Assembly (NCBI GenBank): GCA_025060595.1
Contig: JANXBX010000001.1
Coordinates: 185,696-249,695, forward strand
DNA length: 64,000 nucleotides
Direction of reading: 5' to 3'
From: Synergistota bacterium
Lineage (GTDB): Bacteria; Synergistota; GBS-1
The notes under the pieces were generated by a model that was not told the origin of the DNA, made no database searches, and saw nothing but the letters and a program-made list of their open reading frames with translations. Below, one piece after another: positions 1-30,213 of the stretch. Made by a program: the position numbers and the translations under genes. The stretch's first letter is position 1. The number at the start of each line of letters is the position of its first letter.

Positions 1-702
1 CTCCTTGTAACATATCCTCTTAAGGACATCTATTAGCGCAGCATAATTATAGCTATCGCTTAAGCTTGGCATTAATCTCTTGGGAAACTCCGTTAATGGG
101 TTATCTATATGAATATGCTTCACATATTTCTCATATTTAGCTATGTCTTCCACGCTTCTTCCAACAGCTACAAGCCACCTAAGATCACACATGGTCTTTA
201 AGTTATATTTTCCGAACTTTTCTATGAAATCCACAGCTTCAGGAATGGAGTTAATGAAATTAGAAAGACTTGGTGCTAAAGGCTCAAGTAAAACGGTTAT
301 ATTATATTCAGCAGTAACATCACAAAGGATATTCAAGAAATCCATAAGTTTATTATAGGCAGACTGAATATCCCCTTCAGTAGGAAGGCTCCTTGACCTA
401 CCATTACCAAACACATAATAGCGCGCACCAAGCTCCGCTGTTCTATAAGCTCCTATCTTTAGATATTCAGTCCAATACTTTAAATCAAAATCTGGAGAAG
501 CTATACGAACATCAAGAGGAATAGGATTATCAAAAACTTCACAGGTTATGTCAAGGCTTTTAATTTTCTTAAGCGCTGCTTTAAACTCATCCTCACTAAG
601 CTCTACAATTTCTCTTACCTGAAGCTCTGCACAATCATAGCCCGCTTTCTCTATAGCTTCAAGATCTTTTATTTTGCCAAAGCAAGAGAGCTTCATTTTC
701 AT
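1..702 (-). CDS. Sugar phosphate isomerase/epimerase (xylose isomerase-like TIM barrel), partial; N-terminus at 702, C-terminus runs off the window start
   Basis: Minus-strand reading frame is open from ATG (rc of 700-702; RBS GGGGGTGAAAAGG upstream) to position 1 with no stop. Translation MKMKLSCFGKIKDLEAIEKAGYDCAELQV...VLLEPLAPS...VKHIHIDN has the EPL and HIHIxD motifs typical of AP-endonuclease-2/xylose-isomerase-like TIM barrels. Not in the ORF track because it is incomplete. Confidence 0.55.
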   Translation of the reverse strand, partial: MKMKLSCFGKIKDLEAIEKAGYDCAELQVREIVELSEDEFKAALKKIKSLDITCEVFDNPIPLDVRIASPDFDLKYWTEYLKIGAYRTAELGARYYVFGNGRSRSLPTEGDIQSAYNKLMDFLNILCDVTAEYNITVLLEPLAPSLSNFINSIPEAVDFIEKFGKYNLKTMCDLRWLVAVGRSVEDIAKYEKYVKHIHIDNPLTEFPKRLMPSLSDSYNYAALIDVLKRICYKE

Positions 703-716
703 AACCTTTTCACCCC

Positions 717-1760
717 CTAATTTATCTTAACCAATACTTTAATTTCCTCACCATCAGCTGATAGCTTCCTAAAGGCTTCAGGTACTTCTTCCAAAGAACA
801 AACTGAGGTAATCATACTTTTAACATCAAGCTTCCTCTGAGCTATATAGTTCATTACCTCATACATTTCATTAGTGAACATATAGCTACCATAGATGGTC
901 AGCTTTCTTCCAACTATCTCAACAGGGTTTACCTCAACATTCTTCCTTATTATGCCAACTAATACGATATCACCACCATTTCTGACAAGCTTAAACGAGT
1001 CTTTAAGAGCTGATGGTACACCAGCAGCAACTATAACCCTATCAAAACCAACTTTATCAACCAAACCTAATAAACTCTCTACTGGTTCATCTTTAACATT
1101 TAAAACATAATCCGCCCCAAGCTTTTTAGCAACTTCAAGCTTAAAATCAACCACATCAGTTACTACAATCTTACCTGATCCTAAAACTTTTAAAAATTCC
1201 AATATCATTAAACCTATAGGTCCGGCTCCGATAACTGCTACATTCTCGCCCTTTTCGAAATTTCCTTCCTTAGCTGCAGAAAGACATACAGATAATGGTT
1301 CTAACAAGGCACCTTCCTCAAAACTAACTTCCTCGTGCAAAGGGACAAGAGCAAATTCAGGAACACAAACATACTCAGCAAAAGCACCGTCACACCGCTT
1401 CTTCTCAACACCTAACGTTCTTCCAACGCTTCTTCTATAAGGGCATAAGTTTATCCAACCTCTTTGACAGTAATAACACTTACCACAATAAAGCATAGGG
1501 TTAACGCTAACTCTTTGACCAACCCTATCTTTTGAGACACCTGGGCCTACTTCAACAATCTCTCCTGAAAACTCATGCCCAAATATAATAGGTGGTATAG
1601 CTCTATCAGAGCCTATCTTGTACTCTTCTACATCAGAACCACATATTCCAGCAAACTTAACCTTTATACAAACCTCACCCTCCTTAGGAATAGGCTTGGG
1701 AACCATCTCATAACGCATATCGCCAGGTCCATGAAAGACAACCGCTCTCATGTAATCCAT
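717..1760 (-). CDS. Zn-dependent alcohol dehydrogenase (MDR family; sorbitol/threonine dehydrogenase-like)
   Basis: GHEFSGEIVEVG and CGKCYYCQRG zinc-binding motifs; GAGPIGL Rossmann motif. The track start at 1778 is a TTG inside the RBS GGGGAGGGGAG; the likely start is the ATG at 1760 (MDYMRAVVF...). Confidence 0.85.
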   Translation of the reverse strand: MDYMRAVVFHGPGDMRYEMVPKPIPKEGEVCIKVKFAGICGSDVEEYKIGSDRAIPPIIFGHEFSGEIVEVGPGVSKDRVGQRVSVNPMLYCGKCYYCQRGWINLCPYRRSVGRTLGVEKKRCDGAFAEYVCVPEFALVPLHEEVSFEEGALLEPLSVCLSAAKEGNFEKGENVAVIGAGPIGLMILEFLKVLGSGKIVVTDVVDFKLEVAKKLGADYVLNVKDEPVESLLGLVDKVGFDRVIVAAGVPSALKDSFKLVRNGGDIVLVGIIRKNVEVNPVEIVGRKLTIYGSYMFTNEMYEVMNYIAQRKLDVKSMITSVCSLEEVPEAFRKLSADGEEIKVLVKIN

Positions 1761-1791
1761 ACAAGCTCCCCTCCCCAAAGTTTATACTTAA

Positions 1792-1822
1792 GGGCGTGAC
1801 GTTTACTAAAATTGTCACGCCC
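1792..1822 (-). promoter_or_regulatory. Perfect 9-bp inverted repeat GGGCGTGAC-N13-GTCACGCCC between the creatininase-family gene and the ADH RBS; possible partial terminator or operator
   Basis: Read directly from the sequence. Contains a TGACG/CGTCA core palindrome and lies about 12 nt upstream of the ADH Shine-Dalgarno. Confidence 0.35.
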
Positions 1823-1835
1823 TTGAACAAGCACA

Positions 1836-2801
1836 TTATGGTGGCCATGCAATTACATAAATATGCTTACCACCTTTTGTAGGACCTTTAAGCACAGCTT
1901 CTATGAGCTCAGGATCTCTCTGAGTGATCAGTTTAGCATCCGGCAACTTCCCAGGTGGGAATATAGATAAGATATCATTGTGAAGCTTAAGTAGATAATC
2001 GCAAGCTCTTTCTATACAGGCTCTTGCCTTTTCTGCCTTCGCCTTAGTAGCTTTACCAAGTACTCCCTCAGGAGCGGTGATACATTCAATACCTACATTA
2101 CCTACTTGACAGTGTCCAGGTATCGGATAACCGTATATATCTCCACCCCTATCCACATGACCAGGAGGCAGATAACCCTTTATAGTTGTATCCTCCGCAT
2201 GCTCCATATCACAGAACTCCGGGAAAAGAGCTAAAGAAATAGATGTTTCAGCCTCATCCGCATGCTGAAATGGCGTCTCAAATGGACCACCGTGCTCCTT
2301 ATCCATAAGAGTCTGTCCCATAACGCGCGGCAGATCCACGAAGAGTATTAAAGCTGGAACTTGATACTTTTTAGCCCATTCCTGAATAGCTGAAGGAATA
2401 ATATATTCCTGCCCATGCATACTTATGAATATCTGTTTTCTAAATCCGGTATTCCAGTAACCCGTTATTATAGCTCTTATCATAGCAGCGAAAACATCAT
2501 CAGGAAGAGGAACTGTACCCGGTTGACCAATGTGATGGAATGGATGCGAACCATACCATATCGGAGAAGCTATAGTACAGCCAGCCTTAGCCGCAACCAT
2601 TTCAGCTATCCTCGTCACAATAAAGGTATCTTCACCCATTGGACCTGCGCTCCCATGATTCTCTGTTGAACCCACGGGAACTAAAAGAATATCATTAACC
2701 TTTAGCCTCTCTTCAACATCTCTCCTAGTCATCGTGTGATAGTACATCTTATTAGGTTTTTCAATACAACCTTCGTTTGGAAATTTCCACTCTCCCATCA
2801 T
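1836..2801 (-). CDS. Creatininase-family amidohydrolase (creatinine amidohydrolase-like)
   Basis: LVPVGSTENHG...ISMHGQEY motifs match the creatininase-family metal-binding pattern. ATGATG start preceded by AAGGAGGG. Confidence 0.7.
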   Translation of the reverse strand: MMGEWKFPNEGCIEKPNKMYYHTMTRRDVEERLKVNDILLVPVGSTENHGSAGPMGEDTFIVTRIAEMVAAKAGCTIASPIWYGSHPFHHIGQPGTVPLPDDVFAAMIRAIITGYWNTGFRKQIFISMHGQEYIIPSAIQEWAKKYQVPALILFVDLPRVMGQTLMDKEHGGPFETPFQHADEAETSISLALFPEFCDMEHAEDTTIKGYLPPGHVDRGGDIYGYPIPGHCQVGNVGIECITAPEGVLGKATKAKAEKARACIERACDYLLKLHNDILSIFPPGKLPDAKLITQRDPELIEAVLKGPTKGGKHIYVIAWPP

Positions 2802-2828
2802 CTACCCTCCTTACTTTCAAGGATCTTT

Positions 2829-3860
2829 TTAAGGATATAGAATAACCTTTATATCCTTAGACTTTCCTGATGCTAACTCCTCAAAGATCCTCGGACCCTC
2901 ACTTAATGGATACACACCTGTAATAATCTTCTCTACATCCATCTTGCCGCTTTTAAGTATCTCAAGGCCTTCAATCATCTCTGTTATATACATATAGGTC
3001 CCTTTGAAACACAGTTCCCTTGCAACAGCCATCTTGTAATCGATATCTACTGTAGTTGCACCAAGACCTATCCATATGACAGTCCCTCCATTACGAACCA
3101 TCTGAGCGCTATCCTTAACAGTTTCAGCAAAACCAACAGCATCAAAAACCACATCAGCTCCTGCATCATTAGTCATCTTTCTCACAACCTCAGATGCCTT
3201 CTCCCTATTTGGATTTATAATCACATCTGCCCCACACTCTTTAGCCATCTGGAGTCTATTATCTAATACCTCCATCGCAAATACCCTCTTAGCTCCATAG
3301 TACTTCGCAGACATGACTGTCAAAAGACCTATAGGTCCAGCACCATAAACCGCTACCTCCTTACCCTCTAAGCTACCTACATGCTTTACAGCACGAAGAA
3401 CATTAGCTAAAGGCTCTATCAAAGCAGCTGCATTGAAGGAAACGTTATCGGGTAGCTTTATAACCTTATTAGCTGGAGCAACTACATATTCCGCCATAGC
3501 CCCATTGTAAGAACCCGCCTTCATCGTAGTACCTATTATCCTACGGTTTTCACAAATGTTAATAAATCCAGCTTTACAGTTAGGACAATCACCACAATAC
3601 AAATTGGTCTCAACTATTACACGATCCCCAACATTGATTCCCTTTACCCCTTCGCCTAACTTAGCTATCTCACCTGAGAACTCATGTCCCATAATAAGAG
3701 GGGGTACTCTAAAGGGAGATTTCCCTCTATAACCGTTTAAGTCTGAACCACATATGGAAACAGCTTTTACCTTAATTAGAACCTCTCCTTGCTTAGGTTC
3801 AGGGGTTTCCACATCTACATACCTTATATCCCCTGCACCGTAAAAAACTAAAGCTTTCAT
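2829..3860 (-). CDS. Zn-dependent alcohol dehydrogenase (MDR family), second paralog
   Basis: GHEFSGEIAKLG, CGDCPNCKAG and GAGPIGLL motifs; RBS GGGGGGG. Confidence 0.85.
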   Translation of the reverse strand: MKALVFYGAGDIRYVDVETPEPKQGEVLIKVKAVSICGSDLNGYRGKSPFRVPPLIMGHEFSGEIAKLGEGVKGINVGDRVIVETNLYCGDCPNCKAGFINICENRRIIGTTMKAGSYNGAMAEYVVAPANKVIKLPDNVSFNAAALIEPLANVLRAVKHVGSLEGKEVAVYGAGPIGLLTVMSAKYYGAKRVFAMEVLDNRLQMAKECGADVIINPNREKASEVVRKMTNDAGADVVFDAVGFAETVKDSAQMVRNGGTVIWIGLGATTVDIDYKMAVARELCFKGTYMYITEMIEGLEILKSGKMDVEKIITGVYPLSEGPRIFEELASGKSKDIKVILYP

Positions 3861-3886
3861 ATTTCTGCCCCCCTTTATTTATTTTG

Positions 3887-3919
3887 TTGGCTCCCCCACC
3901 AGGTGGTGGGGGGAGCCAA
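3887..3919 (-). promoter_or_regulatory. GC-rich 14-bp stem-loop (TTGGCTCCCCCACC-AGGT-GGTGGGGGAGCCAA) between TRAP SBP gene and ADH gene; intra-operon mRNA hairpin
   Basis: Read directly. No U-tract follows on the minus transcript, so it is more likely a stabiliser or attenuator than a full terminator. Confidence 0.4.
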
Positions 3920-3932
3920 CCTGATCGAACTC

Positions 3933-4952
3933 TTATTTCTTTACCTGAGTTATAGCAAGTAAGAGATCATCGACGATTTCACTACCTACAGCACTTCTTA
4001 CCATATCAGCAACGCCCTTTGCTGCTTCTTTCATTCTCTGCCTCATTTCCGGTGTAACCTCTATAATTTCCATACCTTTCTTCTGAAGCTCAACCAACAT
4101 AGCGCTAGTTTGAGTTTTAGATTCCTTAAACAGATATTCGCTAACCTCGTTAGTTACATCAGTTACTGTCTTCTGATAGTCAGCAGGCATACCATCATAT
4201 AGCTTCTTGTTCATTATGTAGGTAAACACAAAACATATATGATGTGTATTAACCACATATTTCTGAACCTCGTAGAACTTAGCAGACCAAATTATCTCGT
4301 ATGGGTTCTCCTGAGCATCTACTATACCCTGCTGCAAGGCTACGTAAAGTTCAGCAAAGCTAAGAGGCGTAGGATTAGCTCCCAAAGCTCTCCAGAAAGC
4401 TAAATGATATTTGTTTTCCATAGTCCTTATCTTCAAACCCTTAAGATCATCTATACTCTTTACCGGTTTCTTCGTAGTGAGCTCGCGGAAGTAAATAGGT
4501 GTAAACATAAGAAGCTTAAAGCCAGCCTTTTCGTAATCTGGAATAAGCTTACCTTTAAACGGATCTAATGCCTTTTTTGCAACATCCAAATCATCAAAAA
4601 GCATAGCTATATCAAACACAGCAAGCTTAGGAACAAAACCAACCATGGGAGCGGTAGTTAAAGAAACCATAGCTATATTTCCAGCCTGACAACTTTCAAC
4701 GGTTTCTCTATCTCCTCCAAGCTTAGAGTCAAGATATAGCTCAACCTTTATTTTTCCATTAGATTTCTTCTCAAGTAACTCCTTAAAAAGCTTAGCAGCT
4801 AATACCCTTGGAGTATCTTGAGCGCTAGGATAGGCCCCTGCTAACTGCAAAGTGTACTGTTGGGCATACGCTGGAACATCGCCCACTACCAAGCCCATAA
4901 GCCCTATCACTAAACTAACCACCACTACACCCGCTAGAAGCTTTTTCATCAC
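3933..4952 (-). CDS. dctP: TRAP transporter substrate-binding protein, DctP family
   Basis: Signal peptide; DctP-family length and motifs (LKIRTMENKYHLAFWRALGANPTP...). Confidence 0.85.
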   Translation of the reverse strand: MMKKLLAGVVVVSLVIGLMGLVVGDVPAYAQQYTLQLAGAYPSAQDTPRVLAAKLFKELLEKKSNGKIKVELYLDSKLGGDRETVESCQAGNIAMVSLTTAPMVGFVPKLAVFDIAMLFDDLDVAKKALDPFKGKLIPDYEKAGFKLLMFTPIYFRELTTKKPVKSIDDLKGLKIRTMENKYHLAFWRALGANPTPLSFAELYVALQQGIVDAQENPYEIIWSAKFYEVQKYVVNTHHICFVFTYIMNKKLYDGMPADYQKTVTDVTNEVSEYLFKESKTQTSAMLVELQKKGMEIIEVTPEMRQRMKEAAKGVADMVRSAVGSEIVDDLLLAITQVKK

Positions 4953-5019
4953 TGCTCCCCTCCTCTAAGAGAGATTTTTAAATCTCAGAAAAAGACCGCT
5001 AAGTTAAAACCTTATCTCA

Positions 5020-6321
5020 TCACCCCCTTCTAACTAAAATCAAGCTAATATCTGGTATATAAGTCACTAGAAAGAGCGCAACTATAAAAGCCAAGATAAA
5101 TGGTATAGCCTGCTTTCCGACATCCATAACAGGTCTCTCTACAAGCGGACAGGCAACGAAGAGATTAACACCAAAAGGTGGTGTTGCCATACCTACAGCT
5201 AAATTTATAGACATTACTATTCCCAAATGCACGGGATCTATACCTAAAGCTACAGCTGCTGGCAAAAGCATCGGTGCTAATATGGCTATAACTGGTCCTA
5301 TATCCATAAACATACCTATGATAAGGAAAAGAACATTTAAACCCAATAAGAAAAGAGCTGCATTGCCACCGAAGTTAGTCACTATAAAATCCCTAACGAC
5401 CTGTGGAACTTGAAGTAGCGCTAAAACACGTCCAAAAACTATAGCTAAGGATAGAAGCATAACTATTGGAGTGTAAGCCCTAACAGAGTTAATCAGTATT
5501 CTTGGAAGATCCTTAAGGCTTAAAGTCTTGTATATAAAAAGACAAGCTAAAAAGGAGTAAAAGACCGAAATAACAGCCGCTTCCGTAGGAGTAACAACAC
5601 CTGTATATATCCCTCCTAAGACAATCACTGGACTTAAGAGAGCCCAAAAACTCTCTCTAAAAACTCTAAAGAAACCTCTAGATCTTAACTCGTTATATTT
5701 AGTTTGGATTCTTACCCTATCCTCACCTTTAGTCACAGCATATATATAAGCATAGGCCATCAAGCATAAACCTATCGTTATCCCAGGGAAAATACCTGCT
5801 ATAAACAAATCCCCTATAGATGTTCCGGTTACAACACCATATGTCACAAAGGGAATGCTCGGAGGAATTATTACGCCTAAACCACCAGCAGTCGCTATCA
5901 TTCCAGCAACAAAGGTCTTATCATACCCTAGGGAAATTAAAAAAGGTATAGCCATACTCCCCACGGCTGCAGTTGTAGCCACACCTGATCCCGAAATAGC
6001 CCCATAAAACATAGCTGTAGCTATAGTAGCCATAAGCATCCCAGCTCTAACCTTCCCTAAGAAGAACACAAAGAAGTCGAAGAGCTTTTCAGATATCTTA
6101 CCTCTCGTCATTATATCTCCAGCTAGTATGAAAAGCGGGATAGCAAGTATAGGGGTATTATCAAGAGCATTTACCATATTTCTAATCACAAAGTTTATAT
6201 TCCCAGCAACGAAACGAGGATTTAATAAACCAGGAATTATCGTAGCCAAACCGAGCGAAACCAATAAAGGAACGCCCAATAGCAAACAAACAAGCATTAC
6301 GATAAAAGCTATAGTTCCCAT
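5020..6321 (-). CDS. dctM: TRAP transporter large permease, DctM
   Basis: 433-aa polytopic membrane protein with DctM-family motifs. Confidence 0.9.
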   Translation of the reverse strand: MGTIAFIVMLVCLLLGVPLLVSLGLATIIPGLLNPRFVAGNINFVIRNMVNALDNTPILAIPLFILAGDIMTRGKISEKLFDFFVFFLGKVRAGMLMATIATAMFYGAISGSGVATTAAVGSMAIPFLISLGYDKTFVAGMIATAGGLGVIIPPSIPFVTYGVVTGTSIGDLFIAGIFPGITIGLCLMAYAYIYAVTKGEDRVRIQTKYNELRSRGFFRVFRESFWALLSPVIVLGGIYTGVVTPTEAAVISVFYSFLACLFIYKTLSLKDLPRILINSVRAYTPIVMLLSLAIVFGRVLALLQVPQVVRDFIVTNFGGNAALFLLGLNVLFLIIGMFMDIGPVIAILAPMLLPAAVALGIDPVHLGIVMSINLAVGMATPPFGVNLFVACPLVERPVMDVGKQAIPFILAFIVALFLVTYIPDISLILVRRG

Positions 6322-6334
6322 GTTATTTCCTCCT

Positions 6335-6832
6335 TCACTTTTCTGCCTTTAAGGTACTCAAACCTTGCTTCCTAAACATTTCTATTATGCTTTGAATAGA
6401 CCTAACAGTTGCAAGAAAGAATCCCACATTAGCTGAAAAATAAACCAAATACATAGGAATCTCCATAGCAGGGCTTGTTTGCCCACTATCCTTTATCATC
6501 TTAACTACAGGGATGGAGTTCACAAATAGATAAACAAAGAAAATCAAAACGAAAAACTCCACACCTATCTTTAAAAATCTCTTAATATTTAAAGGTAATA
6601 CTTCAACCAAAGAATCAACCCTTAATATCGTTTTTTTCCTTATGCTATAACCTATACTTAAAAGAGAAGACCATACAAATAGATACCGGCAAACCTCTTC
6701 AGCCCAGGAGAGCGACGATCCAACCACATAACGCATAAAAACTTGAAGCATCATCACACAAGCAATCAAAACGAGAAAGATGCTTAAAATTAGCTCCTCT
6801 AAATGCTGATCTATCCATCTTACAACAGCCAC
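6335..6832 (-). CDS. dctQ: TRAP transporter small permease, DctQ
   Basis: 165 aa with 4 TM segments, immediately upstream of dctM. Confidence 0.8.
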   Translation of the reverse strand: MAVVRWIDQHLEELILSIFLVLIACVMMLQVFMRYVVGSSLSWAEEVCRYLFVWSSLLSIGYSIRKKTILRVDSLVEVLPLNIKRFLKIGVEFFVLIFFVYLFVNSIPVVKMIKDSGQTSPAMEIPMYLVYFSANVGFFLATVRSIQSIIEMFRKQGLSTLKAEK

Positions 6833-6854
6833 CCTCTATCCCTCCTTTAAAAAT

Positions 6855-6889
6855 AAAAGGCGGTAGCGAAAACTCTAACTACCGCCTTT
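6855..6889 (-). terminator. Rho-independent terminator (11-bp stem AAAGGCGGTAG/CTACCGCCTTT) after the cupin/AOR operon; T-rich on both sides
   Basis: Stem-loop with flanking T-runs read directly; lies between the cupin stop (6898) and the dctQ start (6832). Confidence 0.6.
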
Positions 6890-6897
6890 AAATGTCT

Positions 6898-7272
6898 TTA
6901 TGTTTTTCCCTCCTCTTTTCTGTGACTCTTAAGCTGAGGAGAATATATCCATATAAACTTGAGGGGCTCGTCTCCCGTGTTAACGATAGAGTGATACTCT
7001 CCTGGAGGATTATAAATACACACTCCCGGTTCTAAAGGTATCTCCTCATCCTTGGTTATAAACTTTCCTCTACCCTGTAAAAAAATCATAACCTCTTCCT
7101 CATTGTCATGCTTATGCTCTGGAACCCTACTTCCCACATAAGTCTCGTTTATACCTACAGCTAAATTTTTAGCCCCTACAGTTTTTTCTGAAACCAATAT
7201 CCACGACTTTCTTGGAGGCTCTCTATATTCTCCCTCTACCTCACTTATGCGAATAACTTTTACTCTCGACAT
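6898..7272 (-). CDS. Cupin domain protein
   Basis: Small beta-barrel protein with a cupin_2-like His/Glu pattern (HKHDNEEEVMIFLQGRG...GEYH). Confidence 0.65.
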   Translation of the reverse strand: MSRVKVIRISEVEGEYREPPRKSWILVSEKTVGAKNLAVGINETYVGSRVPEHKHDNEEEVMIFLQGRGKFITKDEEIPLEPGVCIYNPPGEYHSIVNTGDEPLKFIWIYSPQLKSHRKEEGKT

Positions 7273-7287
7273 ACCCCTACCCCCCTA

Positions 7288-9018
7288 TTAGAAGATATTT
7301 GGATCCATTTCAATATCCCATATACTCTCTAATTCCTCCTGAGGAATATCGAATACCGAGTTATGCGGAGGCAACGGTTCCTCCCTCATAAACTCTGGAA
7401 TTCTCTTAAACCTCTCCGACACTCCAGCAAGCTCATTAAACTTTCTCTCAATATTTAAAACTTCAACCCCTATATGTTTTGCATCCTTAAAACTTAAATC
7501 CCAACCATACCTCGCTCTAAATAGTCCACCTAATAAATCCGGATTTTTAATAAAAGCGGGTCTTATAAACAAACACACTCCCATCGAATCTATCAATGCT
7601 GCCCTTATCTGAAGCTGCCTCGATATGCGAACCTGCCCTTCTTTAGAAAGCGGATCATGATACCTCACGGTTTCAAAGGCATTACCAGCTGTATGATCTG
7701 CACCCATTGTAGACGTAGCATACAATACTCCATTTCCTTTCAACCCTCTTGGATCATAAGCGGGCATAGCCTGCCCTTTGACTACCGGAACCCTTCTTAC
7801 ACCAAAAGCCTGGCCTGTGAAAGCCGCACCATTACCTATAACTCTACCTAAAACCGTTCCTTCTCCTATCTGTCTTATCAAATCTTTTGCTCCCTTCGCA
7901 TCTCCAAACTTTATAACCCCAGCTTCCATAGCTACACCTATAGCCGCGCCAATCTCTATTGTGTCAACACCAACCTCATTGCATAGATGATTCAACTCAG
8001 CTACCGCATCCACATCTCCTATACCACAGTTAGGTCCCAATAAAACAACACTTTCATATTGAAGAGTCGCCACTATCTTTTTACCAGCTTTGTCTGGGAA
8101 AATATGACTACACATTATAGTACAACTTGGTACACACTGAGTCCCGCTTTTACCACAACCTCCTCTACTTCTTATAAGCTCAGCCACCGCCGGACCTGTA
8201 AAGTTATCAGCAAACTCAAACTGCCCCACGCTAAAGTTCCTCGTTGGGAGAAACCCTAATTTATTAACCATCTCTAAGATATCGAGGGTTCCATATTTCC
8301 TCCTATTCTGGCTCTTAGGATCCTCCTTAAGAATCTTTGCAACCTCCTTGACAATATCGCTTAGCAATTTGGGGTCATGATAATCAGGTTCAACCGTTTC
8401 AGAATCATCTACAACTATCGCTTTTATTCCCTTCGATCCCATCACAGCCCCCAAGCCGCCTCTTGCAGCATACCTTACTTGCTCTAACCTATCATCAGTG
8501 AGAGCTATACCAGCACCGTAAAGCTTCATCTCCCCAGCAGGACCTATACATATAAGTCCTTTTCTATCTCCAAACTCCTTCCTTAATAGGTCAAAAGTCT
8601 CACTAACAACTTTTCCCTTAAGATAGGGGGCATCAATAAGCCTCGCTTCACGAGCGCTAACATATAAGACCCTAGTCTGCTCTCTATCTGGAATATCTTC
8701 TAATATTATTGCCTTTACACCTATCCGTGCCAGCTTTTTACCAGCACTACCACCAGAATTGCATTCCTTTACGCCACCAGTAAGCGGACTTTTACCACCA
8801 ATAGAAACTCTTCCACTTGTGCTTAAATTAGTATCAGCAAAATATCCAGAAGAAATTATTAGCTTGTTATATCTACCCAAAGGCTCACAGGTTGGTGGAA
8901 CCTCATCTAATAAAACCTTAGCTATATAATATCTACCAGCATATTTACGTTCCTCCGATGTTGCGATCGACTCCTTAATTTCACCAGTTTTTGTGTTAAC
9001 TCTAATTATCCTTCTCAT
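7288..9018 (-). CDS. aor: Aldehyde:ferredoxin oxidoreductase family protein (tungstopterin-containing AOR)
   Basis: N-terminus MRRIIRVNTKTGEIKE...GGKSPLTGGV is characteristic of the AOR family; 576 aa. Confidence 0.85.
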   Translation of the reverse strand: MRRIIRVNTKTGEIKESIATSEERKYAGRYYIAKVLLDEVPPTCEPLGRYNKLIISSGYFADTNLSTSGRVSIGGKSPLTGGVKECNSGGSAGKKLARIGVKAIILEDIPDREQTRVLYVSAREARLIDAPYLKGKVVSETFDLLRKEFGDRKGLICIGPAGEMKLYGAGIALTDDRLEQVRYAARGGLGAVMGSKGIKAIVVDDSETVEPDYHDPKLLSDIVKEVAKILKEDPKSQNRRKYGTLDILEMVNKLGFLPTRNFSVGQFEFADNFTGPAVAELIRSRGGCGKSGTQCVPSCTIMCSHIFPDKAGKKIVATLQYESVVLLGPNCGIGDVDAVAELNHLCNEVGVDTIEIGAAIGVAMEAGVIKFGDAKGAKDLIRQIGEGTVLGRVIGNGAAFTGQAFGVRRVPVVKGQAMPAYDPRGLKGNGVLYATSTMGADHTAGNAFETVRYHDPLSKEGQVRISRQLQIRAALIDSMGVCLFIRPAFIKNPDLLGGLFRARYGWDLSFKDAKHIGVEVLNIERKFNELAGVSERFKRIPEFMREEPLPPHNSVFDIPQEELESIWDIEMDPNIF

Positions 9019-9034
9019 TAACTTTATACCCCCC

Positions 9035-10072
9035 TTAGTTTAATCTTAAACTTGAACCAAGCTTAATTAGAAGGGAGTTTATAGAAGAAGCTAACTTCTC
9101 ATCTATCTCTACGCCTTCTTTCTTGCTTTTCCCCTCTTTCCTAAACTCTATTTCACCAGGTATAAGAATCTCTTCAACACCACATGCTTTTTTAAGATTT
9201 TTAACCGTTTCAAAGTAATTTTTCATCTTTCTTCTAAACTCAGCTACGTCTATAAAACGAGAAACATCTATAACTATACATGAAGCTCCTACTCTTGTTG
9301 GCCCCTCAAGGATATGAAAAGATTTAAGCTGATTTCCATATCCGGATCCAGCCAATAATCCACAAACGATATCCACGGCCATAGCTAAAGCAGAACCCTT
9401 AGGTCCACCTATCGGCATTAATGTTCCCTCAAGGGCCTTTTCAGGATCAGTAGTCGGTTTGCCCTCACAATCTAAGGCCCATCCCTCCGGTATCTTCACG
9501 CCCTTTCTCTGAGCCTCTCTTATCTTACCTCGCGCTACAACGCTTGTTGCCATGTCCATAGTAAAATTCATACCATCGCCAGGTATGGAAAGAGCTATGG
9601 GATTCGTTCCCAAAAATTTTTCAGCAGCTCCCCACGGAGCCATCGAAGGCGCTGCATTAGAGACCATCAAAGCCATCATTCCCTGTTCAGCTGCCCTTTC
9701 AGTATAACAACCAAGACAACCCACATTATTAGTATTACGTATTAAAGCCATACCTATACCATATTTTTTCGCCTTCTCAATAGCCTTTTCCAAAGCTAGA
9801 TAACCAGCCACCATACCTATACCATCTTTACCATCTATAAGAAGAGTAGCTTCTTCATCATATAAAACTTCTACTTCGGTAGGCAACTTAAGTTGTCCTC
9901 CCTCAACTCGCATAGCTATTACGTTTAAAAGATATATACCGTGCGTCGAAACTCCTCTCATGTCTGCTCTCACCAATATCTCAGCTATTCTCTTAGCATT
10001 TTCATGACTCTCTCCTAATCTTCTTAAAATATCTTCCGTAACAAGCTTTAACTTTTCCACAGCAACCTTCAA
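9035..10072 (-). CDS. Ldh2-family (malate/L-lactate dehydrogenase family 2) oxidoreductase, YiaK/AllD-like
   Basis: N-terminal pattern ...RADMRGVSTHGI... and 345 aa fit Ldh_2. Confidence 0.75.
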   Translation of the reverse strand: MKVAVEKLKLVTEDILRRLGESHENAKRIAEILVRADMRGVSTHGIYLLNVIAMRVEGGQLKLPTEVEVLYDEEATLLIDGKDGIGMVAGYLALEKAIEKAKKYGIGMALIRNTNNVGCLGCYTERAAEQGMMALMVSNAAPSMAPWGAAEKFLGTNPIALSIPGDGMNFTMDMATSVVARGKIREAQRKGVKIPEGWALDCEGKPTTDPEKALEGTLMPIGGPKGSALAMAVDIVCGLLAGSGYGNQLKSFHILEGPTRVGASCIVIDVSRFIDVAEFRRKMKNYFETVKNLKKACGVEEILIPGEIEFRKEGKSKKEGVEIDEKLASSINSLLIKLGSSLRLN

Positions 10073-10097
10073 AGCCCTCTGCCTCCCCTTGACCTAT

Positions 10098-10808
10098 TTA
10101 CTCTTCCCTTAAACCAAGTCTTTCCAAAACCTCGCGAAGATTGTTATACTCTACGCTTGATACCCCTGTCTTAAGAACCTCTCTCTTTTTATTCTCATCA
10201 GCCACTCTTTTTAATGCTTTCTCTAAAATAATCCCAGCCTCTTCTCTTTTTATCACTACAACCCCATCGTTATCTCCCAAAACTAAATCACCCGCATTAA
10301 CTACTACACCACCAATAGAAAGGGGATAATTTATCAACCCCAAGGCTTCCTTAGAAGTACCTCTAATAGAAAAACCTCTGCAAAAAATCGGAAAACCCAT
10401 ACTAACTATCTCTTCAGAGTCCCTAATGCAACCATCTATTACTAAACCTGCAATACCTTTCGCCATAGCCGAAACAGTCATTAGCTCTCCCCAATAACCA
10501 TATTCATAAGCACCACTAGTTACAGCAACAATGACATCTCCTTCCTCTGCAACTTCTAAAGCCTTATGAAGCATAAGATTATCACCAGGAGCGCATTGAA
10601 CAGTTATAGCAGAACCGCATAACTTCATTCCCCAATATATAGGTCTTATAAAATTAGAAACCGCACCTTTACGTCCAGCAGCTTCATACACGGTCGCTGA
10701 GGACAGAGATTTAAATGCACTTATGATCTCCTTCTCTGGTCGCCTAAAGCTTTTAATAACATGAATCAAGCCCACTACCCCCCATCTATCTAAGGTTAAC
10801 CTCCACAC
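10098..10808 (-). CDS. RraA-family protein (4-hydroxy-2-oxo-acid aldolase / oxaloacetate decarboxylase-like)
   Basis: LVIDGCIRD and TVYEAAGRKG motifs. The track start is GTG and overlaps the upstream gene; the TTG at 10769 preceded by GGGGGG is the likelier start. Confidence 0.75.
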   Translation of the reverse strand: MWRLTLDRWGVVGLIHVIKSFRRPEKEIISAFKSLSSATVYEAAGRKGAVSNFIRPIYWGMKLCGSAITVQCAPGDNLMLHKALEVAEEGDVIVAVTSGAYEYGYWGELMTVSAMAKGIAGLVIDGCIRDSEEIVSMGFPIFCRGFSIRGTSKEALGLINYPLSIGGVVVNAGDLVLGDNDGVVVIKREEAGIILEKALKRVADENKKREVLKTGVSSVEYNNLREVLERLGLREE

Positions 10809-11014
10809 ATAGCAACAAACAAATGAATTTCATCCCCATCATAAACCAAATCATTACTACCTATCCTAAAAGACCCTCTAACGAAAACTATATCTGCCAA
10901 CAGATCTTCCTTAATCCCGATTTTCTCGGCTACTTCCCTTAAAGGTAATGAACCATTTACAGACAATTCACAAGTAAATCTACTTAAAATACCATGTCCT
11001 ACTATTTTTACCAT
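10796..11014 (-). CDS. MoaD/ThiS-family ubiquitin-like sulfur-carrier protein (C-terminal Gly-Gly)
   Basis: MVKIVGHG...DGDEIHLFVAMCGG-stop is the beta-grasp pattern with a terminal GG. The track start (11110) is overcalled; the likely start is the ATG at 11014, giving 72 aa. Confidence 0.6.
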   Translation of the reverse strand: MVKIVGHGILSRFTCELSVNGSLPLREVAEKIGIKEDLLADIVFVRGSFRIGSNDLVYDGDEIHLFVAMCGG

Positions 11015-11168
11015 TCCCATCTTTCCATTTATATTGTAATTGCTTATTAGAAGAGATGTCAATTGGGTTTCTATCAATAAATAAAATATGCTTCCATATA
11101 GTGGAAGCACAAGAATAACCCTTATCCTACGAGGATTTTACTTAGAGGGATAATTTAGCAGTCCGATT

Positions 11169-11597
11169 TCATAAATTCGTGGAACTCTCAATAGGTTCTA
11201 CTACTCCCAAAAATATATGCTCTCTATCAAAACTCCCGTAGTAAGCATGAAGCACTGCTTTGTGAACCATTAGCTCCATAAAGTTTCCTTTCAATATTGC
11301 TGGATATGGAACTAGATCTTTAAATATAGGTTTTGTTATTTCAAGAGAAAGGCTCTTGGCCTTATTCACAATTTCTATCTCACTAACTAAGGCTTCGTCA
11401 CAATTTAATCCCATAGCCACTAACCTCTTAAGTAGCCCTTTAGAAAAAGCAATTATCAACTCCTTACCTCCCTTTAGTCCCATGAAAACAACCACTTCCG
11501 GTAAATTACAACTATAATCTTCATGAGTGCTTTCCACCTTTTCCCACAAAATTCCACCGAACTTTCTATCAATCTCTCCCTTAATTATTTCTATCAT
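11169..11597 (-). CDS. Hypothetical protein (142 aa)
   Basis: ORF with 17-nt overlap onto the recN stop; no recognisable motif. Confidence 0.4.
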   Translation of the reverse strand: MIEIIKGEIDRKFGGILWEKVESTHEDYSCNLPEVVVFMGLKGGKELIIAFSKGLLKRLVAMGLNCDEALVSEIEIVNKAKSLSLEITKPIFKDLVPYPAILKGNFMELMVHKAVLHAYYGSFDREHIFLGVVEPIESSTNL

Positions 11598-13233
11598 GGC
11601 TTACCTCCTCCAAAAGTTCTTTAGCATGCCTTAAGGCTACCTCAGATGTTCTTCCTGAAAGCATTCGCGCTATTTCCTTTAGCCTATCTTCCCCTCTAAG
11701 AAGCTTGACTTTACTTTTGACTCTACCTTCCTCCATAATCTTATCCACAAAATAGTGATAGTCTGCCTTTGAAGCTATGGAAGCAAGATGAGTAATACAT
11801 ATGACTTGTTTTTCCTTAGAAAGCTTTTTTATCTCCTCTCCTAGCATATTAGCTACATCCCCTCCAATCCCCACATCTATTTCATCGAATATAAGAGTTG
11901 GAACCCCATAGTTTTTAGAGATAGCACACTTTAATGCAAAGCTCAATCGAGAAATCTCTCCACCAGAAGCAATTTCACTAATCTTTCTAAGCTCATCTTT
12001 AGGGGAAGGGGCCATTAAAAACCTCACCGTGTCTAACCCCTCAGGTCCAAACTCCCCCTTAACCAAGTGGATCCTAAATACTATGTTACCCATGGCAAGC
12101 TTTTCTAGGATTCTCCTAACTTCCCCCTCAAGCAAGCTAGCACATCTCTTTCTTTCCTCAGATATCCTGTCTCCAAGAGAGTAAAGGATCTTGTGAAGCT
12201 CTTCCCTCCTTTTTTTAAGCACCTCTATTTTATCCTCTACGTCCCCTAGATCTTTCAAATTTTCCCTCCATCGAGAAGCAAGCTCGAGCAACTCCTCAAT
12301 CTCTCTAACACCATGCTTTTTCTTCAACCTTCTTATAAGAGAAAGTCTTTCCTCTATGGTCTCAATGTTTTCTTCCTCAAGATCTAAAAGTTCAAGTTTC
12401 CTAGATAGTATAGAGGAAAATTCCTTAAGAGAGAAAATAAACGCGTTAAACTCTTCAATAAATCGCGAAAGCTCCCTTTCGTACCTTGTTATTTTTTCGA
12501 GAAGCCTCTTAAGTTCACTAATCTTATCTAAAATCCCCTCGCTCCAACTTCCGCCTTCCAATAGATTTAAAGCCTCTTTAATTGAAACTTTAAGCTCTTC
12601 GATATTAAGCAGTCTATCCCTTTTTTCTAAAAGCTCCCTCTCCTCATCCACCTTAAGCGATGCCCTTTCTATCTCTTGGAGATAGAAAAATAATTCTTCC
12701 TTCCTTCTCTTAAGTTCATCCTTACTCTTTTCAAGCTCCCTTAAATCATCAACTAACGCAGTATACTCTTTATATAGTCTTTCATACTCCTCCAACAACC
12801 CCTTTATAGATTCCCCTCCATATCTATCAAGAGCTTTAAGCTGATTACTCTCCTTTAAAATCCAGCCATGTTCAAGTTGACTGTGAATTTCGAATAAGGA
12901 TGATCCTATCTCTTTCAAAAACCCAATAGGTACGCCTCTGCCTTGATAGAAGGCTTTACTCCTCCCTTCAGGGTATACTTCCCTTCTTAAAATTATCTCC
13001 TCTCCTTCTTCATCGAAAACAGCTTCAACCTCAGCCTTATCCGCTCCACTTCTTATCACTTCCTCCCCTACTCTTTTACCTAAAAGAAGAGATAAAGCTT
13101 CTACTATTATGGATTTACCAGCCCCTGTTTCTCCCGTTAAAACATTTAGACCAGGATGAAACTCCATCTCGAGTTCTTCAATTATAGCAAAGTTCCTTAT
13201 TCGAATTTCCTTAATCACCTGGTACCACTCCAA
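11581..13233 (-). CDS. recN: DNA repair protein RecN
   Basis: Walker A GETGAGKS, coiled-coil middle region and C-terminal SMC signature. Confidence 0.9.
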   Translation of the reverse strand: MEWYQVIKEIRIRNFAIIEELEMEFHPGLNVLTGETGAGKSIIVEALSLLLGKRVGEEVIRSGADKAEVEAVFDEEGEEIILRREVYPEGRSKAFYQGRGVPIGFLKEIGSSLFEIHSQLEHGWILKESNQLKALDRYGGESIKGLLEEYERLYKEYTALVDDLRELEKSKDELKRRKEELFFYLQEIERASLKVDEERELLEKRDRLLNIEELKVSIKEALNLLEGGSWSEGILDKISELKRLLEKITRYERELSRFIEEFNAFIFSLKEFSSILSRKLELLDLEEENIETIEERLSLIRRLKKKHGVREIEELLELASRWRENLKDLGDVEDKIEVLKKRREELHKILYSLGDRISEERKRCASLLEGEVRRILEKLAMGNIVFRIHLVKGEFGPEGLDTVRFLMAPSPKDELRKISEIASGGEISRLSFALKCAISKNYGVPTLIFDEIDVGIGGDVANMLGEEIKKLSKEKQVICITHLASIASKADYHYFVDKIMEEGRVKSKVKLLRGEDRLKEIARMLSGRTSEVALRHAKELLEEVSHDRNN

Positions 13234-24494: not shown

Positions 24495-25577
24495 TTAACA
24501 ATACCTTTCCTTCATCTTACAAACGGCTTCCCAAAGCCCTAAAAGATAAGTTATACCCAAAGCCCTATCATAAAGACCATATCCAGGACGACCTTTCTCA
24601 CCCCATATCATCCTACCATGATCTGGTCTCACATAGCCTTTGTAATCCACATCACAAAGGGCTTTTACAATCTCAAACATATCATGAGAACCACAGAAAG
24701 AAGGATGAGCCGTCTCATAAAACTTTCCACGCTCTACTATTTTGAGGTTTCTAAGATGAGCAAAATGTATTCTTCCCATTTTCCCGAAGTAGCGAATCAT
24801 CTCCGGTATGTTGTTATCAGGGTTAGCTCCAAGCGATCCCATACAAAAAGTCAAACCATTATAAGGACTATCAACAGCCTTTAAGAAACGCTCTATGTTC
24901 TCCTTATTAGTAACTATCCTAGGAAGACCAAATATACTCCATGGTGGATCGTCGGGGTGAATGGCAAGCTTAACATCACACTCCTCACATGTAGGAATAA
25001 CAGCTTTAAGGAAGTAAACAAGATTTTCGAGAAGTTTATTTTCATCTATACTCTTATAAAGTTTGAAGGTCTCCTCAAGCTTAGCAAGTCTATCCCACTC
25101 CCATCCAGGGAGAATAACCCCATGAGAACCCTCTTTAACTCTCCTTATTAACTCCTGCGGCGTTATATTCTCTATCAAGCTATGATCATATTCCATAACC
25201 TCCGAGCCATCGGGCAACTTTTTGTGAAGATCCGTTCTCATCCAATCAAATACAGGCATGAAGTTATAGCATATAACCTTTACCCCAACCTTAGATAAAT
25301 TCTTTATCGTTTCTATATAGTTCTCTATATATCTATCTCTCGTAGGAAGACCAAGCTTGATATCCTCATGTACGTTTACACTCTCTATAACCTCCAGAGT
25401 AAGACCCGCCCTTTCAACCACTTCCTTTAGCCGCTTAATCTTCTCAAGAGGCCAAACCTCACCCACAGGAACATCAAACAAAGCTCCCACAACTCCAACA
25501 ACACCAGGAATCTGTCTTATCTGCTCTAAGGTTATATGATCATTTCCTTCCCCATACCACCTAAAGACCATCTTCAT
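24495..25577 (-). CDS. uxuA: Mannonate dehydratase
   Basis: MKMVFRWYGEGNDHITLEQIRQIPG N-terminus typical of UxuA; 360 aa. Confidence 0.9.
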   Translation of the reverse strand: MKMVFRWYGEGNDHITLEQIRQIPGVVGVVGALFDVPVGEVWPLEKIKRLKEVVERAGLTLEVIESVNVHEDIKLGLPTRDRYIENYIETIKNLSKVGVKVICYNFMPVFDWMRTDLHKKLPDGSEVMEYDHSLIENITPQELIRRVKEGSHGVILPGWEWDRLAKLEETFKLYKSIDENKLLENLVYFLKAVIPTCEECDVKLAIHPDDPPWSIFGLPRIVTNKENIERFLKAVDSPYNGLTFCMGSLGANPDNNIPEMIRYFGKMGRIHFAHLRNLKIVERGKFYETAHPSFCGSHDMFEIVKALCDVDYKGYVRPDHGRMIWGEKGRPGYGLYDRALGITYLLGLWEAVCKMKERYC

Positions 25578-25581
25578 CCCC

Positions 25582-28228: not shown

Positions 28229-28246
28229 TTTAGTACACCTCCTATA

Positions 28247-30127: not shown

Positions 30128-30154
30128 TTCGCTTTACCCCCTGAGTCAAGGTCA

Positions 30155-30187
30155 GGGTGAGCTCCCTCTTTAAAAGGGAACTCACCC
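30155..30187 (-). promoter_or_regulatory. Intercistronic 12-bp stem-loop between TRAP SBP gene and fused permease gene
   Basis: GGGTGAGCTCCC-TCTTTAAAA-GGGAACTCACCC with one mismatch; classic SBP-downstream hairpin for differential expression. Confidence 0.5.
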
Positions 30188-30213
30188 TCCAAACCACTTG
30201 AGCTTCCTAAAAA

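Follow-up and report, generated by a model that had tools for sequence, protein, structure and literature searches.

What does the cluster of eleven genes at positions 717-11110 of this Synergistota genome fragment break down, and by what chemistry? The window analyzed here, that is, the whole stretch of 64,000 nucleotides (nt) of contig JANXBX010000001.1 (positions 185,696 to 249,695), carries at this site genes for a tripartite ATP-independent periplasmic (TRAP) transporter, two Zn-dependent medium-chain alcohol dehydrogenases (Zn-ADH), a creatininase-family protein, a cupin, an aldehyde:ferredoxin oxidoreductase (AOR), an Ldh2-family dehydrogenase, an RraA-like aldolase and a small MoaD/ThiS-like protein (Table 1). 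All positions refer to the window unless a locus is named, and all genes of the cluster are on the minus strand, with transcription running from 11110 to 717. Judging from the predicted proteins and their neighborhoods in other genomes, we consider it probable that the cluster breaks down a carbocyclic hydroxy-acid, most likely, quinate and/or shikimate, without oxygen and without aromatization of the ring at any stage.

The creatininase-family protein is, we propose, the key enzyme. It matches the NCBIfam model NF041098 (IolN, 3-dehydro-scyllo-inosose hydrolase) over the full length, with a score of 537.1 bits against a cutoff of 245. In the inositol pathway of Thermotoga maritima, encoded in the operon TM0411-TM0416, IolN opens a cyclic 1,3-diketone, as summarized in PMC5931981 from Rodionova et al. 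2013. The window protein is thus a putative IolN-type C-C hydrolase that would open a cyclic beta-diketone. No solved structure is close to it, the best match being creatinine amidohydrolase, at 48 bits. Zn-ADH A and Zn-ADH B score 220 and 215 bits, respectively, against the model of IolM (scyllo-inosose 3-dehydrogenase; cutoff 450), their third-ranked match, and are proposed to be ring hydroxyl dehydrogenases.

The window proteins were compared by tblastn with 80 loci obtained from a scan of one genome per species with alignment of the AOR subfamily; spurious antisense open reading frames (ORFs) in GC-rich loci (clusters c12 and c20) were ignored, and the gene counts rest on tblastn. In group A (AOR at least 55 % identical to that of the window; 22 loci from Bacillota, Desulfobacterota, Spirochaetes and NC10), the cupin and the IolN-like protein are each represented in 21 loci, Ldh2, RraA and Zn-ADH in 18 each, and TRAP in 15, the shortfalls being mostly at short or cut contigs. 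Group B (AOR 44-52 % identical; 25 loci, mostly from Chloroflexi, but also from Acidobacteria, Bipolaricaulota and some Bacillota) retains the cupin and the IolN-like protein in 23 loci each and Ldh2 in 15, with Zn-ADH in 5, RraA in a single locus and TRAP in 0-1. The 33 loci of group C (AOR 43-49 % identical) lack the cupin, the IolN-like protein and RraA, and include Ldh2 and Zn-ADH once each and TRAP three times. Altogether, AOR, cupin and IolN-like hydrolase co-localize in about 45 of the 80 loci, from more than eight phyla; these three make up the conserved core, and the two sub-operons of the window belong together. Homologs of the IolN-like protein (51-97 % identity) are present in 44 of the 47 loci of groups A and B, where 42 of the 44 share the strand of AOR, usually within ~1.2 kb of it; two further homologs on long contigs show the same arrangement, and all 120 IolN-like homologs among the matches listed are at least 63 % identical, many of them with a longest contig equal in length to that of a listed AOR homolog. 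Recurrence of the gene set in so many phyla puts the adjacency well outside what chance would produce, and the cluster is a real operon-like unit conserved across many phyla of anaerobes. The minimal complete cluster (L005 and L008) encodes a GntR regulator, RraA, Ldh2, AOR, a short-chain dehydrogenase/reductase (SDR), cupin, IolN and Zn-ADH, together with DctPQM, that is, seven enzymes with no dehydratase and no xylose-isomerase-like TIM-barrel protein; in L005, unrelated genes (Maf-like and pyridoxal phosphate-enzyme folds) follow.

The AOR is most similar, among proteins of solved structure, to 1aor (256 bits), and in the alignment of the two, the cluster ligands C288, C291, C295 and C494, along with E313, H448 and the pterin-binding motifs, are all matched. 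It belongs to a distinct subfamily of more than 120 protein clusters at >=60 % identity, with lengths of 573-584 amino acids (aa), mostly 576-578. An enzyme of the tungsten type (tungsten/molybdenum-pterin) is predicted, and no gene for an electron-transfer partner subunit adjoins the AOR gene. We propose that the AOR oxidizes an aldehyde formed after ring opening, with ferredoxin as the acceptor: the link between AOR, hydrolase and cupin persists where RraA is absent, in group B, which argues that the AOR would act on the ring-opening product and not on an aldehyde released by an aldolase. A role as an aromatic-ring reductase similar to BamB was considered and set aside because the protein is much closer to aldehyde oxidoreductases (the match to BamB is 70 bits). 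Of the 47 loci with IolN and/or cupin, 44 have the cupin together with AOR. It contains the motifs HxH...E and PxGxxHxxxN, with a canonical metal site, and weakly matches TM1287 and cupin-type glucose-6-phosphate and mannose-6-phosphate isomerases in the PDB. By analogy, we infer that it may be a ketol/hydroxyaldehyde isomerase feeding the AOR; the cupin-fold isomerases KduI and IolB provide a precedent for such isomerization of related acids.

The last two enzymes could connect the resulting acid to central metabolism. The Ldh2-family protein (Pfam Ldh_2, E 3e-115) is below the cutoffs of all NCBIfam equivalogs, the best being sulfolactate dehydrogenase (308 bits against 500), and its gene is syntenic with AOR in 18 of the 22 group A and 15 of the 25 group B loci. 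To our knowledge, all characterized members of this family interconvert 2-hydroxy- and 2-oxo-acids; oxidation of a 2-hydroxyacid, rather than reduction of a keto acid, is the most likely reaction here. The RraA homolog (Pfam RraA-like, E 2e-46) passes the NCBIfam model PRK09262 (225.8 bits, cutoff 179) and matches, over the full length, the Pseudomonas putida 4-hydroxy-4-methyl-2-oxoglutarate (HMG)/4-carboxy-4-hydroxy-2-oxoadipate (CHA) aldolase (PDB 3noj, 173 bits). R123, D124, E36, N71 and E199 of that protein are conserved, and D102 is replaced by E; we take Arg123 to be catalytic and Asp124 to bind the metal. The window protein is proposed to be of the aldolase type, specifically, of the CHA aldolase/oxaloacetate decarboxylase kind, the products of which would be pyruvate and oxaloacetate.

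The identity of the substrate is suggested, in part, by the transporters. These vary between loci, and in loci with RraA nearly all are of carboxylate types, TRAP or TctABC, which argues against a neutral inositol. In the window, members of the DctP, DctQ and DctM Pfam families are encoded in adjacent genes. DctP contains the motifs KGLKIR and QENP, which in SiaP hold the carboxylate-binding Arg and an Asn, respectively; its nearest solved structures, 4p47, 7bbr and 4p9k, are annotated only as DctP subunits of TRAP systems. The proposed ligand is quinate, shikimate or a closely related ring acid.

Two independent lines of genomic evidence point to quinate or shikimate. Genes for dehydroquinase II (above the aroQ cutoff) and/or shikimate-dehydrogenase-family proteins are present in 6 of the 22 group A loci and in none of the 58 others (Fisher p = 2.5e-4). 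Some of these genes are duplicated, with paired dehydroquinase II genes in L013, L017 and L020, and L016 and L019 have the end of a dehydroquinase gene within ~160-950 nt upstream of AOR. In L013 (11956-13881), a gene for GTP-dependent phosphoenolpyruvate (PEP) carboxykinase directly follows the dehydroquinase II pair and a TIM-barrel gene, in the orientation of the AOR cluster; in this single case, the presence of an oxaloacetate-consuming enzyme fits oxaloacetate as a product of the pathway.

The second line of evidence comes from orthologs of the TRAP transporter (DctP 47-62 %, DctM 62-71 % and DctQ 48-51 % identity) outside AOR clusters, which are located beside shikimate-dehydrogenase and/or dehydroquinase genes in 4/4 sampled contexts (L087, L088, L090 and L091). 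The Acetomicrobium locus (L087, 281-13561) encodes IclR, type I dehydroquinase, a thiamine diphosphate (ThDP) enzyme, an HMGL-like lyase, aldehyde dehydrogenase, shikimate dehydrogenase, a TIM-barrel protein, DctQMP, a major facilitator superfamily (MFS) transporter and a GFO-family protein. A similar set, including shikimate dehydrogenase but lacking the dehydroquinase and ThDP-enzyme genes, is found in Dethiosulfovibrio peptidovorans DSM 11002 (L088, 1-11023). In one long metagenome contig, a shikimate-dehydrogenase fragment is encoded directly upstream of DctQMP; in another (L091, 8185-16803), the TRAP ortholog (DctP 48 %) is accompanied by two feruloyl-esterase-type hydrolases (BD-FAE/Abhydrolase_3), an MFS transporter, type II dehydroquinase and an M24 (creatinase-like) protein, a gene set that would fit the release of quinate from esters of the chlorogenic acid type. 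The cluster of Acetomicrobium and D. peptidovorans resembles the inositol logic of Bacillus subtilis (IolE, IolD) applied to quinate and may represent a second, tungsten-independent anaerobic route.

These observations can be assembled into a scheme in which the order of the steps and every intermediate, like the substrate, come from chemistry and gene context. The acid would be imported by the TRAP system DctPQM. Two NAD(P)-dependent dehydrogenases, the two Zn-ADHs in the window and one Zn-ADH with one SDR in other lineages, would then oxidize the C3 and C5 hydroxyls, yielding 3,5-didehydroquinate, a cyclic 1,3-diketone and a carboxy-deoxy analog of the IolN substrate. The IolN-type hydrolase would cut the C-C bond next to a carbonyl, producing HOOC-CH2-C(OH)(COOH)-CH2-CO-CH2OH, with a ketol end that the cupin would isomerize to a 2-hydroxy-aldehyde. 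The AOR would oxidize this aldehyde to the acid, reducing ferredoxin; Ldh2 would oxidize the 2-hydroxyacid to the 2-oxoacid, CHA; and the RraA-type CHA aldolase would split CHA into pyruvate and oxaloacetate. The MoaD-like protein would serve the synthesis of the AOR cofactor and, where present, dehydroquinase would let shikimate enter via 3-dehydroshikimate.

The mass balance of this scheme closes (C7H12O6 - 8 H + 2 H2O = C7H8O8 = pyruvate + oxaloacetate), and each conserved enzyme is given exactly one job. For an aldolase to release pyruvate, a CH2 group must adjoin the 2-oxo group; the C2 and C6 methylenes of quinate supply it, and therefore no dehydratase is required, unlike in inositol or sugar-acid routes. 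A route through protocatechuate, with the TIM-barrel protein as dehydroshikimate dehydratase, was also considered but set aside: none of the enzymes known to act on protocatechuate anaerobically is encoded, and the minimal clusters lack the TIM-barrel gene.

Several points weigh against quinate or shikimate as the substrate and against parts of the scheme. The window itself contains no dehydroquinase gene, and 16 of the 22 group A loci show no dehydroquinate/shikimate gene within 10 kb; the substrate is deduced from neighboring genes and chemistry only. NCBIfam labels the hydrolase as an inositol enzyme, and the genes on the left side of the cluster (for two Zn-ADHs, IolN, a TIM barrel and two GFO proteins) have the family composition of the T. 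maritima inositol operon. We know of no description of 3,5-didehydroquinate as a metabolite; this compound should readily lose water and aromatize to gallate, and may not be stable enough, particularly in a thermophile. The RraA homolog is below the cutoff of the stricter model TIGR02798 (LigK; 207.5 bits against 304.5), and aldolases of the HMG/CHA type accept other 4-hydroxy-2-oxoacids as well. Finally, the isomerase role of the cupin comes from weak similarity and precedent only.

One alternative is a variant of the Thermotoga-type pathway for myo- or scyllo-inositol, in which GFO and Zn-ADH proteins would make diketo-inositol, IolN would open it to 5-keto-L-gluconate, the cupin or the TIM-barrel protein would yield a uronate and AOR an aldarate, to be processed by Ldh2 and RraA. 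The T. maritima operon is built from the same families (PMC5931981, in its summary of that pathway). The IolN equivalog cutoff is passed, and NCBI names the homologs accordingly; IolM is among the stronger matches of the Zn-ADHs, the best GFO protein is weakly similar to IolG, and IolO is the best match of the TIM-barrel protein; furthermore, a mannonate dehydratase/mannitol-dehydrogenase-family/PfkB cluster elsewhere in the window could process a keto-uronate. However, only IolN passes its cutoff: the scores are 215-220 of 450 for IolM, 131.7 of 355 for IolG, and 48.5 of 300 for IolO, the latter obtained with the full-length TIM-barrel protein from L001. The carboxylate transporters of the loci with RraA are a misfit for a neutral inositol, there is no conserved dehydratase although a pyruvate aldolase acting on an aldarate needs one, and dehydroquinase and shikimate-dehydrogenase genes are enriched both in the loci and beside the TRAP orthologs. 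We therefore regard inositol as an unlikely substrate. A similarly unlikely alternative, perhaps slightly more so, is that the same module acts on another compound, either gallate or a polyphenolic acid, as the keto tautomer after hydration, or an open-chain sugar acid converted to a linear beta-diketone that the IolN-like hydrolase would cut. The carboxylate transporters, the dehydrogenases and a beta-diketone hydrolase would fit such substrates too; 3,5-didehydroshikimate is a tautomer of gallate, and the paired dehydroquinase II proteins of L013, L017 and L020 could hydrate a didehydroshikimate. The feruloyl-esterase-type enzymes (BD-FAE) of L091 suggest plant phenolic esters as a source, and the SDR of other lineages resembles gluconate 5-dehydrogenases (~180 bits). 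Against this, we know of no precedent for gallate hydration or for IolN-type action on a linear diketone, the shikimate-dehydrogenase-family genes point to non-aromatic acids, and an open-chain route leaves the dehydroquinase genes unexplained.

The original prediction for this locus was a coherent, undescribed route in which a keto or sugar acid would be imported by the TRAP system, reduced by Ldh2 and cleaved by RraA to pyruvate and an aldehyde, which the AOR would oxidize; on this reading, the ADH/creatininase unit would be left to unrelated side chemistry. The coherence survives, with two functionally linked sub-operons and conserved synteny, whereas the order of the steps does not. The adjacency of AOR, Ldh2 and RraA, the conservation of which had been raised as a question, holds in 18 of the 22 group A loci; RraA-family aldolases can release aldehydes from 4-hydroxy-2-oxoacids, and the aldolase type proposed for the homolog is supported by its passing PRK09262 and by the conserved Arg and Asp of 3noj. 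Yet AOR is kept with cupin and IolN-like protein in 23 of the 25 group B loci, of which only one has RraA, so that an AOR devoted to an aldolase-released aldehyde finds no support; the closest characterized aldolase yields pyruvate and oxaloacetate, with no aldehyde, and Ldh2 most likely works in the oxidative direction. The analogy with the Escherichia coli yiaK-yiaMNO system fails, with scores far below the cutoffs for YiaK (162 against 316 bits), YiaN (213 against 800) and YiaM (44.5 against 260). The most conserved proteins, IolN and cupin, would be left without a role, the creatininase-family protein having been assigned none, and a carbocyclic acid of the quinate/shikimate type is a likelier substrate than an open-chain acid. 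We accordingly consider this order of events quite improbable. As for a chance juxtaposition of unrelated tungsten-enzyme and sugar-acid operons, a terminator-like hairpin lies between the two units and no regulator gene is visible inside the window cluster; however, Bacillota, Desulfobacterota, Spirochaetes, NC10, Bipolaricaulota, Chloroflexi and Acidobacteria all have this gene set on a single strand, and in most of them the IolN gene is the immediate neighbor of those for cupin and AOR, without an intervening transporter, which leaves this explanation with hardly any probability.

Under the preferred quinate/shikimate assignment, the cluster works like a hybrid, with an upper part resembling the Thermotoga inositol pathway, a last step resembling those of protocatechuate and gallate degradation, and AOR and Ldh2 bridging the two. 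With the T. maritima pathway (IolG, IolM, IolN and IolO, as far as described in the summary cited above), it would share two dehydrogenations leading to a cyclic 1,3-diketone, C-C cleavage by IolN and a ketol-ended product; Zn-ADH, GFO and TIM-barrel genes accompany the IolN-type gene in both. The window cluster is not a member of that operon type, given the scores for IolM, IolG and IolO and the transporter: Thermotoga uses a sugar ATP-binding cassette (ABC) system and channels the product to an epimerase and the tagaturonate route, whereas the window cluster has a carboxylate TRAP system and would channel the product to cupin, AOR, Ldh2 and a CHA-type aldolase. With the lower pathways of aerobic protocatechuate 4,5-cleavage and gallate degradation (LigK/GalC/ProA), it has in common a putative RraA-fold, metal-dependent class II aldolase of the same kind and, as proposed, CHA and its products; the window route, however, would reach CHA by hydrolytic opening and two dehydrogenations, without a dioxygenase or an aromatic intermediate. 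The AOR shares the two-domain architecture, cluster Cys residues, Glu and His, and pterin motifs with the enzymes of Pyrococcus furiosus (1aor) and Aromatoleum (AorB, 8c0z), and a putative MoaD-like gene is located nearby, as at many AOR loci. Unlike these classical AORs, which are broad-range enzymes without a defined pathway, it belongs to a distinct subfamily, has no partner subunit genes and is encoded inside a specific catabolic operon. The classical aerobic qui/qsu/qut clusters resemble the loci related to the window in the presence of type II dehydroquinase, shikimate-dehydrogenase-family and xylose-isomerase-like TIM-barrel genes, the TIM barrel being the fold of dehydroshikimate dehydratase. 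Those clusters aromatize the ring to protocatechuate, on which oxygenases then act, whereas the window-type cluster, found in lineages described as strict anaerobes, has a putative ring hydrolase, AOR and aldolase and is most probably not a classical qui/qsu cluster. An Ldh2-family enzyme near a TRAP transporter is also encoded by E. coli yiaK-yiaMNO, but the pairing in the window is not orthologous.

Neither the gene set nor the route turned up in full-text literature searches; we regard it as a new way of catabolism assembled from enzyme families already known. Among plant metabolites, quinate and shikimate are major ones, and it is long established that some strict anaerobes ferment them with no aromatic intermediates. 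We know of no identified enzymes of this fermentation, and the literature searches turned up none either. Ilyobacter insuetus is such a quinate- and shikimate-fermenting specialist, as cited in PMC10512730. If the assignment is correct, the loci described here provide a complete candidate gene set for an anaerobic quinate/shikimate pathway, with Thermovenabulum gondwanense, Thermovorax subterraneus and Desulfacinum infernum DSM 9756 (L064) as candidates among cultured carriers of the cluster; a large, phylogenetically broad clade of AORs gains a defined physiological role, which is usually unknown for such enzymes; a ring-opening strategy used on inositols has been turned to carbocyclic acids; the end-intermediate of the oxygenase pathways is also reached anaerobically; and the annotation "3-dehydro-scyllo-inosose hydrolase" probably needs correcting for hundreds of database entries. 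Taken together, an undescribed, widespread, O2-independent quinate/shikimate pathway without aromatic intermediates, which re-uses the Thermotoga ring hydrolysis, gives the AOR subfamily a dedicated substrate and converges on CHA, would exist alongside a parallel solution (ThDP enzyme, aldehyde dehydrogenase and HMGL-like lyase beside the same TRAP system) that seems to be present in Synergistota; we see about even chances that this combined picture is correct.

Table 1. Predicted genes and transcription signals of the cluster and its borders, in the order of transcription (window coordinates)
Feature	Position	Strand	Evidence or remark
Terminator-like hairpin closing the upstream unit of recN and the 142-aa ORF	11087..11111	-	10-bp stem then UUUUAUUUAU
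Sigma-70-like promoter, candidate start of the first unit	11033..11062	-	TTGACA, 18-nt spacer, TACAAT; 11/12 consensus matches
MoaD/ThiS-like small protein	10796..11020 (ORF to 11110)	-	72-74 aa, Gly-Gly C-terminus
RraA-like putative class II pyruvate aldolase	10098..10769 (ORF to 10808; database gene call starts 10769)	-	Pfam RraA-like
Ldh2-family 2-hydroxyacid/2-oxoacid dehydrogenase	9035..10072	-	Pfam Ldh_2
AOR-family pterin/[4Fe-4S] oxidoreductase, 576 aa	7288..9018	-	Pfam AFOR_N + AFOR_C
Single-domain metal cupin, 124 aa	6898..7272	-	Pfam Cupin_2
GC-rich hairpin with U-run between the cupin gene and dctQ, putative intrinsic terminator or attenuator	6855..6889	-	folding
TRAP small membrane subunit DctQ	6335..6832	-	Pfam DctQ
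TRAP large membrane subunit DctM	5020..6321	-	Pfam DctM; NCBIfam TIGR00786 above cutoff
TRAP solute-binding protein DctP	3933..4949 (ORF to 4952)	-	Pfam DctP
Zn-dependent medium-chain dehydrogenase A	2829..3860	-	Pfam ADH_N + ADH_zinc_N
IolN-type hydrolase, creatininase fold	1836..2798 (ORF to 2801)	-	NCBIfam NF041098
Zn-dependent medium-chain dehydrogenase B	717..1760 (ORF to 1778)	-	347-aa gene call matched exactly in source contig
Xylose-isomerase-like TIM-barrel gene (AP_endonuc_2), 5' part, 234/267 codons, cut by window edge	1..702	-	Pfam PF01261, E 4e-21

The arrangement of eleven genes of the predicted families on one strand, as originally described, is confirmed by the ORF positions and by the Pfam and NCBIfam assignments. 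So is the hairpin that had been taken to separate two transcription units: GGCGGUAG...CUACCGCC then UUUUAUUUUU folds with -19 kcal/mol (z = -3.4), none of 200 shuffled sequences folds as well, and a U-run follows. The automatic terminator scan missed this hairpin because its loop is longer than 8 nt. In L003 and L004, hairpins of different sequence occur at the same site after the cupin gene. Given the energy of the hairpin, the U-run and these counterparts, a division into two sub-units at this point is plausible. The candidate promoter of the first unit is a consensus match only, and such matches are not enriched across the region. When the entire window was scanned with Rfam for riboswitches ahead of the cluster, responsive to Mo/W-cofactor or otherwise, only a tRNA was found.

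The small ORF at the head of the first unit, originally described as MoaD-like, most likely starts at ATG 11020 or 11014. The description agrees with its size, the Gly-Gly end and a profile match, with 97.3 % probability and E 2.4e-11 in hhalign, to ThiS/MoaD-like proteins that adjoin AOR genes elsewhere, but a direct match to Pfam ThiS is not obtained (E 0.19), whereas two of those AOR-adjoining proteins pass the ThiS cutoff. A direct BLASTP comparison with one Chloroflexi MoaD-like protein gave no alignment, so that only the profile comparison matched, and the single-sequence AlphaFold model is poor (pLDDT, the predicted local distance difference test score, 47). Homologs of this ORF head the operon in L003, L004 and L023 (Bacillota-type loci). 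The protein is presumed to be a sulfur carrier for the synthesis of the pterin cofactor of the AOR. More generally, a protein of 72-100 aa ending in Gly-Gly is encoded immediately downstream of AOR in many loci (e.g., L028, L032, L055, L062, L071, L076; ~11700-11990), including some without IolN or cupin, and bacterial AOR genes in general thus seem to have a dedicated MoaD/ThiS-like partner.

The boundaries initially given for the island, 717-11110, do not hold at the left side. The TIM-barrel gene starts at 702, and at least ten further genes follow on the same strand beyond the window edge, for a total of more than 20 kb. As read on the contig record of a metagenome-assembled genome, JAOAII010000002.1 (locus L083, 11059-21044), this continuation comprises the TIM-barrel gene, two GFO/IDH/MocA genes, Asp_Glu_race, an unannotated 213-aa gene, another cupin, KduI, another TRAP system and a shikimate-dehydrogenase-family gene, the latter located in the source contig ~9 kb further along the same strand. 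The GFO gene just past the edge is 69 % identical to that of the Acetomicrobium cluster. The TIM-barrel gene is present in 8 of the 22 group A loci and adjoins the two dehydroquinase II genes in L013 and L017; its product is proposed to be an accessory isomerase, epimerase or dehydratase. The pair of an Asp/Glu-racemase-family gene and an unannotated gene of ~210 aa (L083, 14257-15592) recurs in L015, L085, L089 and L091, from distant lineages, and the M24 creatinase/prolidase-like gene recurs in L013, L015, L019, L085 and L091; neither has a role in the proposed scheme.

The core also occurs in a variant form, in L038 (7587-15284), L044, L045 and ~20 other loci of Chloroflexi and Acidobacteria. 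These encode IclR, cupin, a 304-aa protein, IolN-like hydrolase, AOR, a 74-aa MoaD-like protein and a Liv-type ABC transporter, often with Ldh2, a two-subunit coenzyme A transferase and a nitroreductase-family protein; RraA is absent. The 304-aa protein, carried by 20 of the group B loci, has no match in Pfam or NCBIfam. Either the substrate or the lower pathway of this variant probably differs.

Upstream of the cluster, a 142-aa ORF (11169-11597, minus strand) overlaps the end of recN. It has no Pfam or NCBIfam match; L003 has a homolog (46 % identity) at the corresponding site, which in L089 is taken by a similarly long ORF of 138 aa. This ORF probably belongs with recN and not with the catabolic cluster. 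A second sugar-acid cluster (24495-31179, minus strand) encodes UxuA mannonate dehydratase, a 553-aa mannitol-dehydrogenase-family reductase, a PfkB-family kinase, a fused DctQ-DctM permease and DctP; it resembles a pathway for hexuronates, which could also process keto-uronates.

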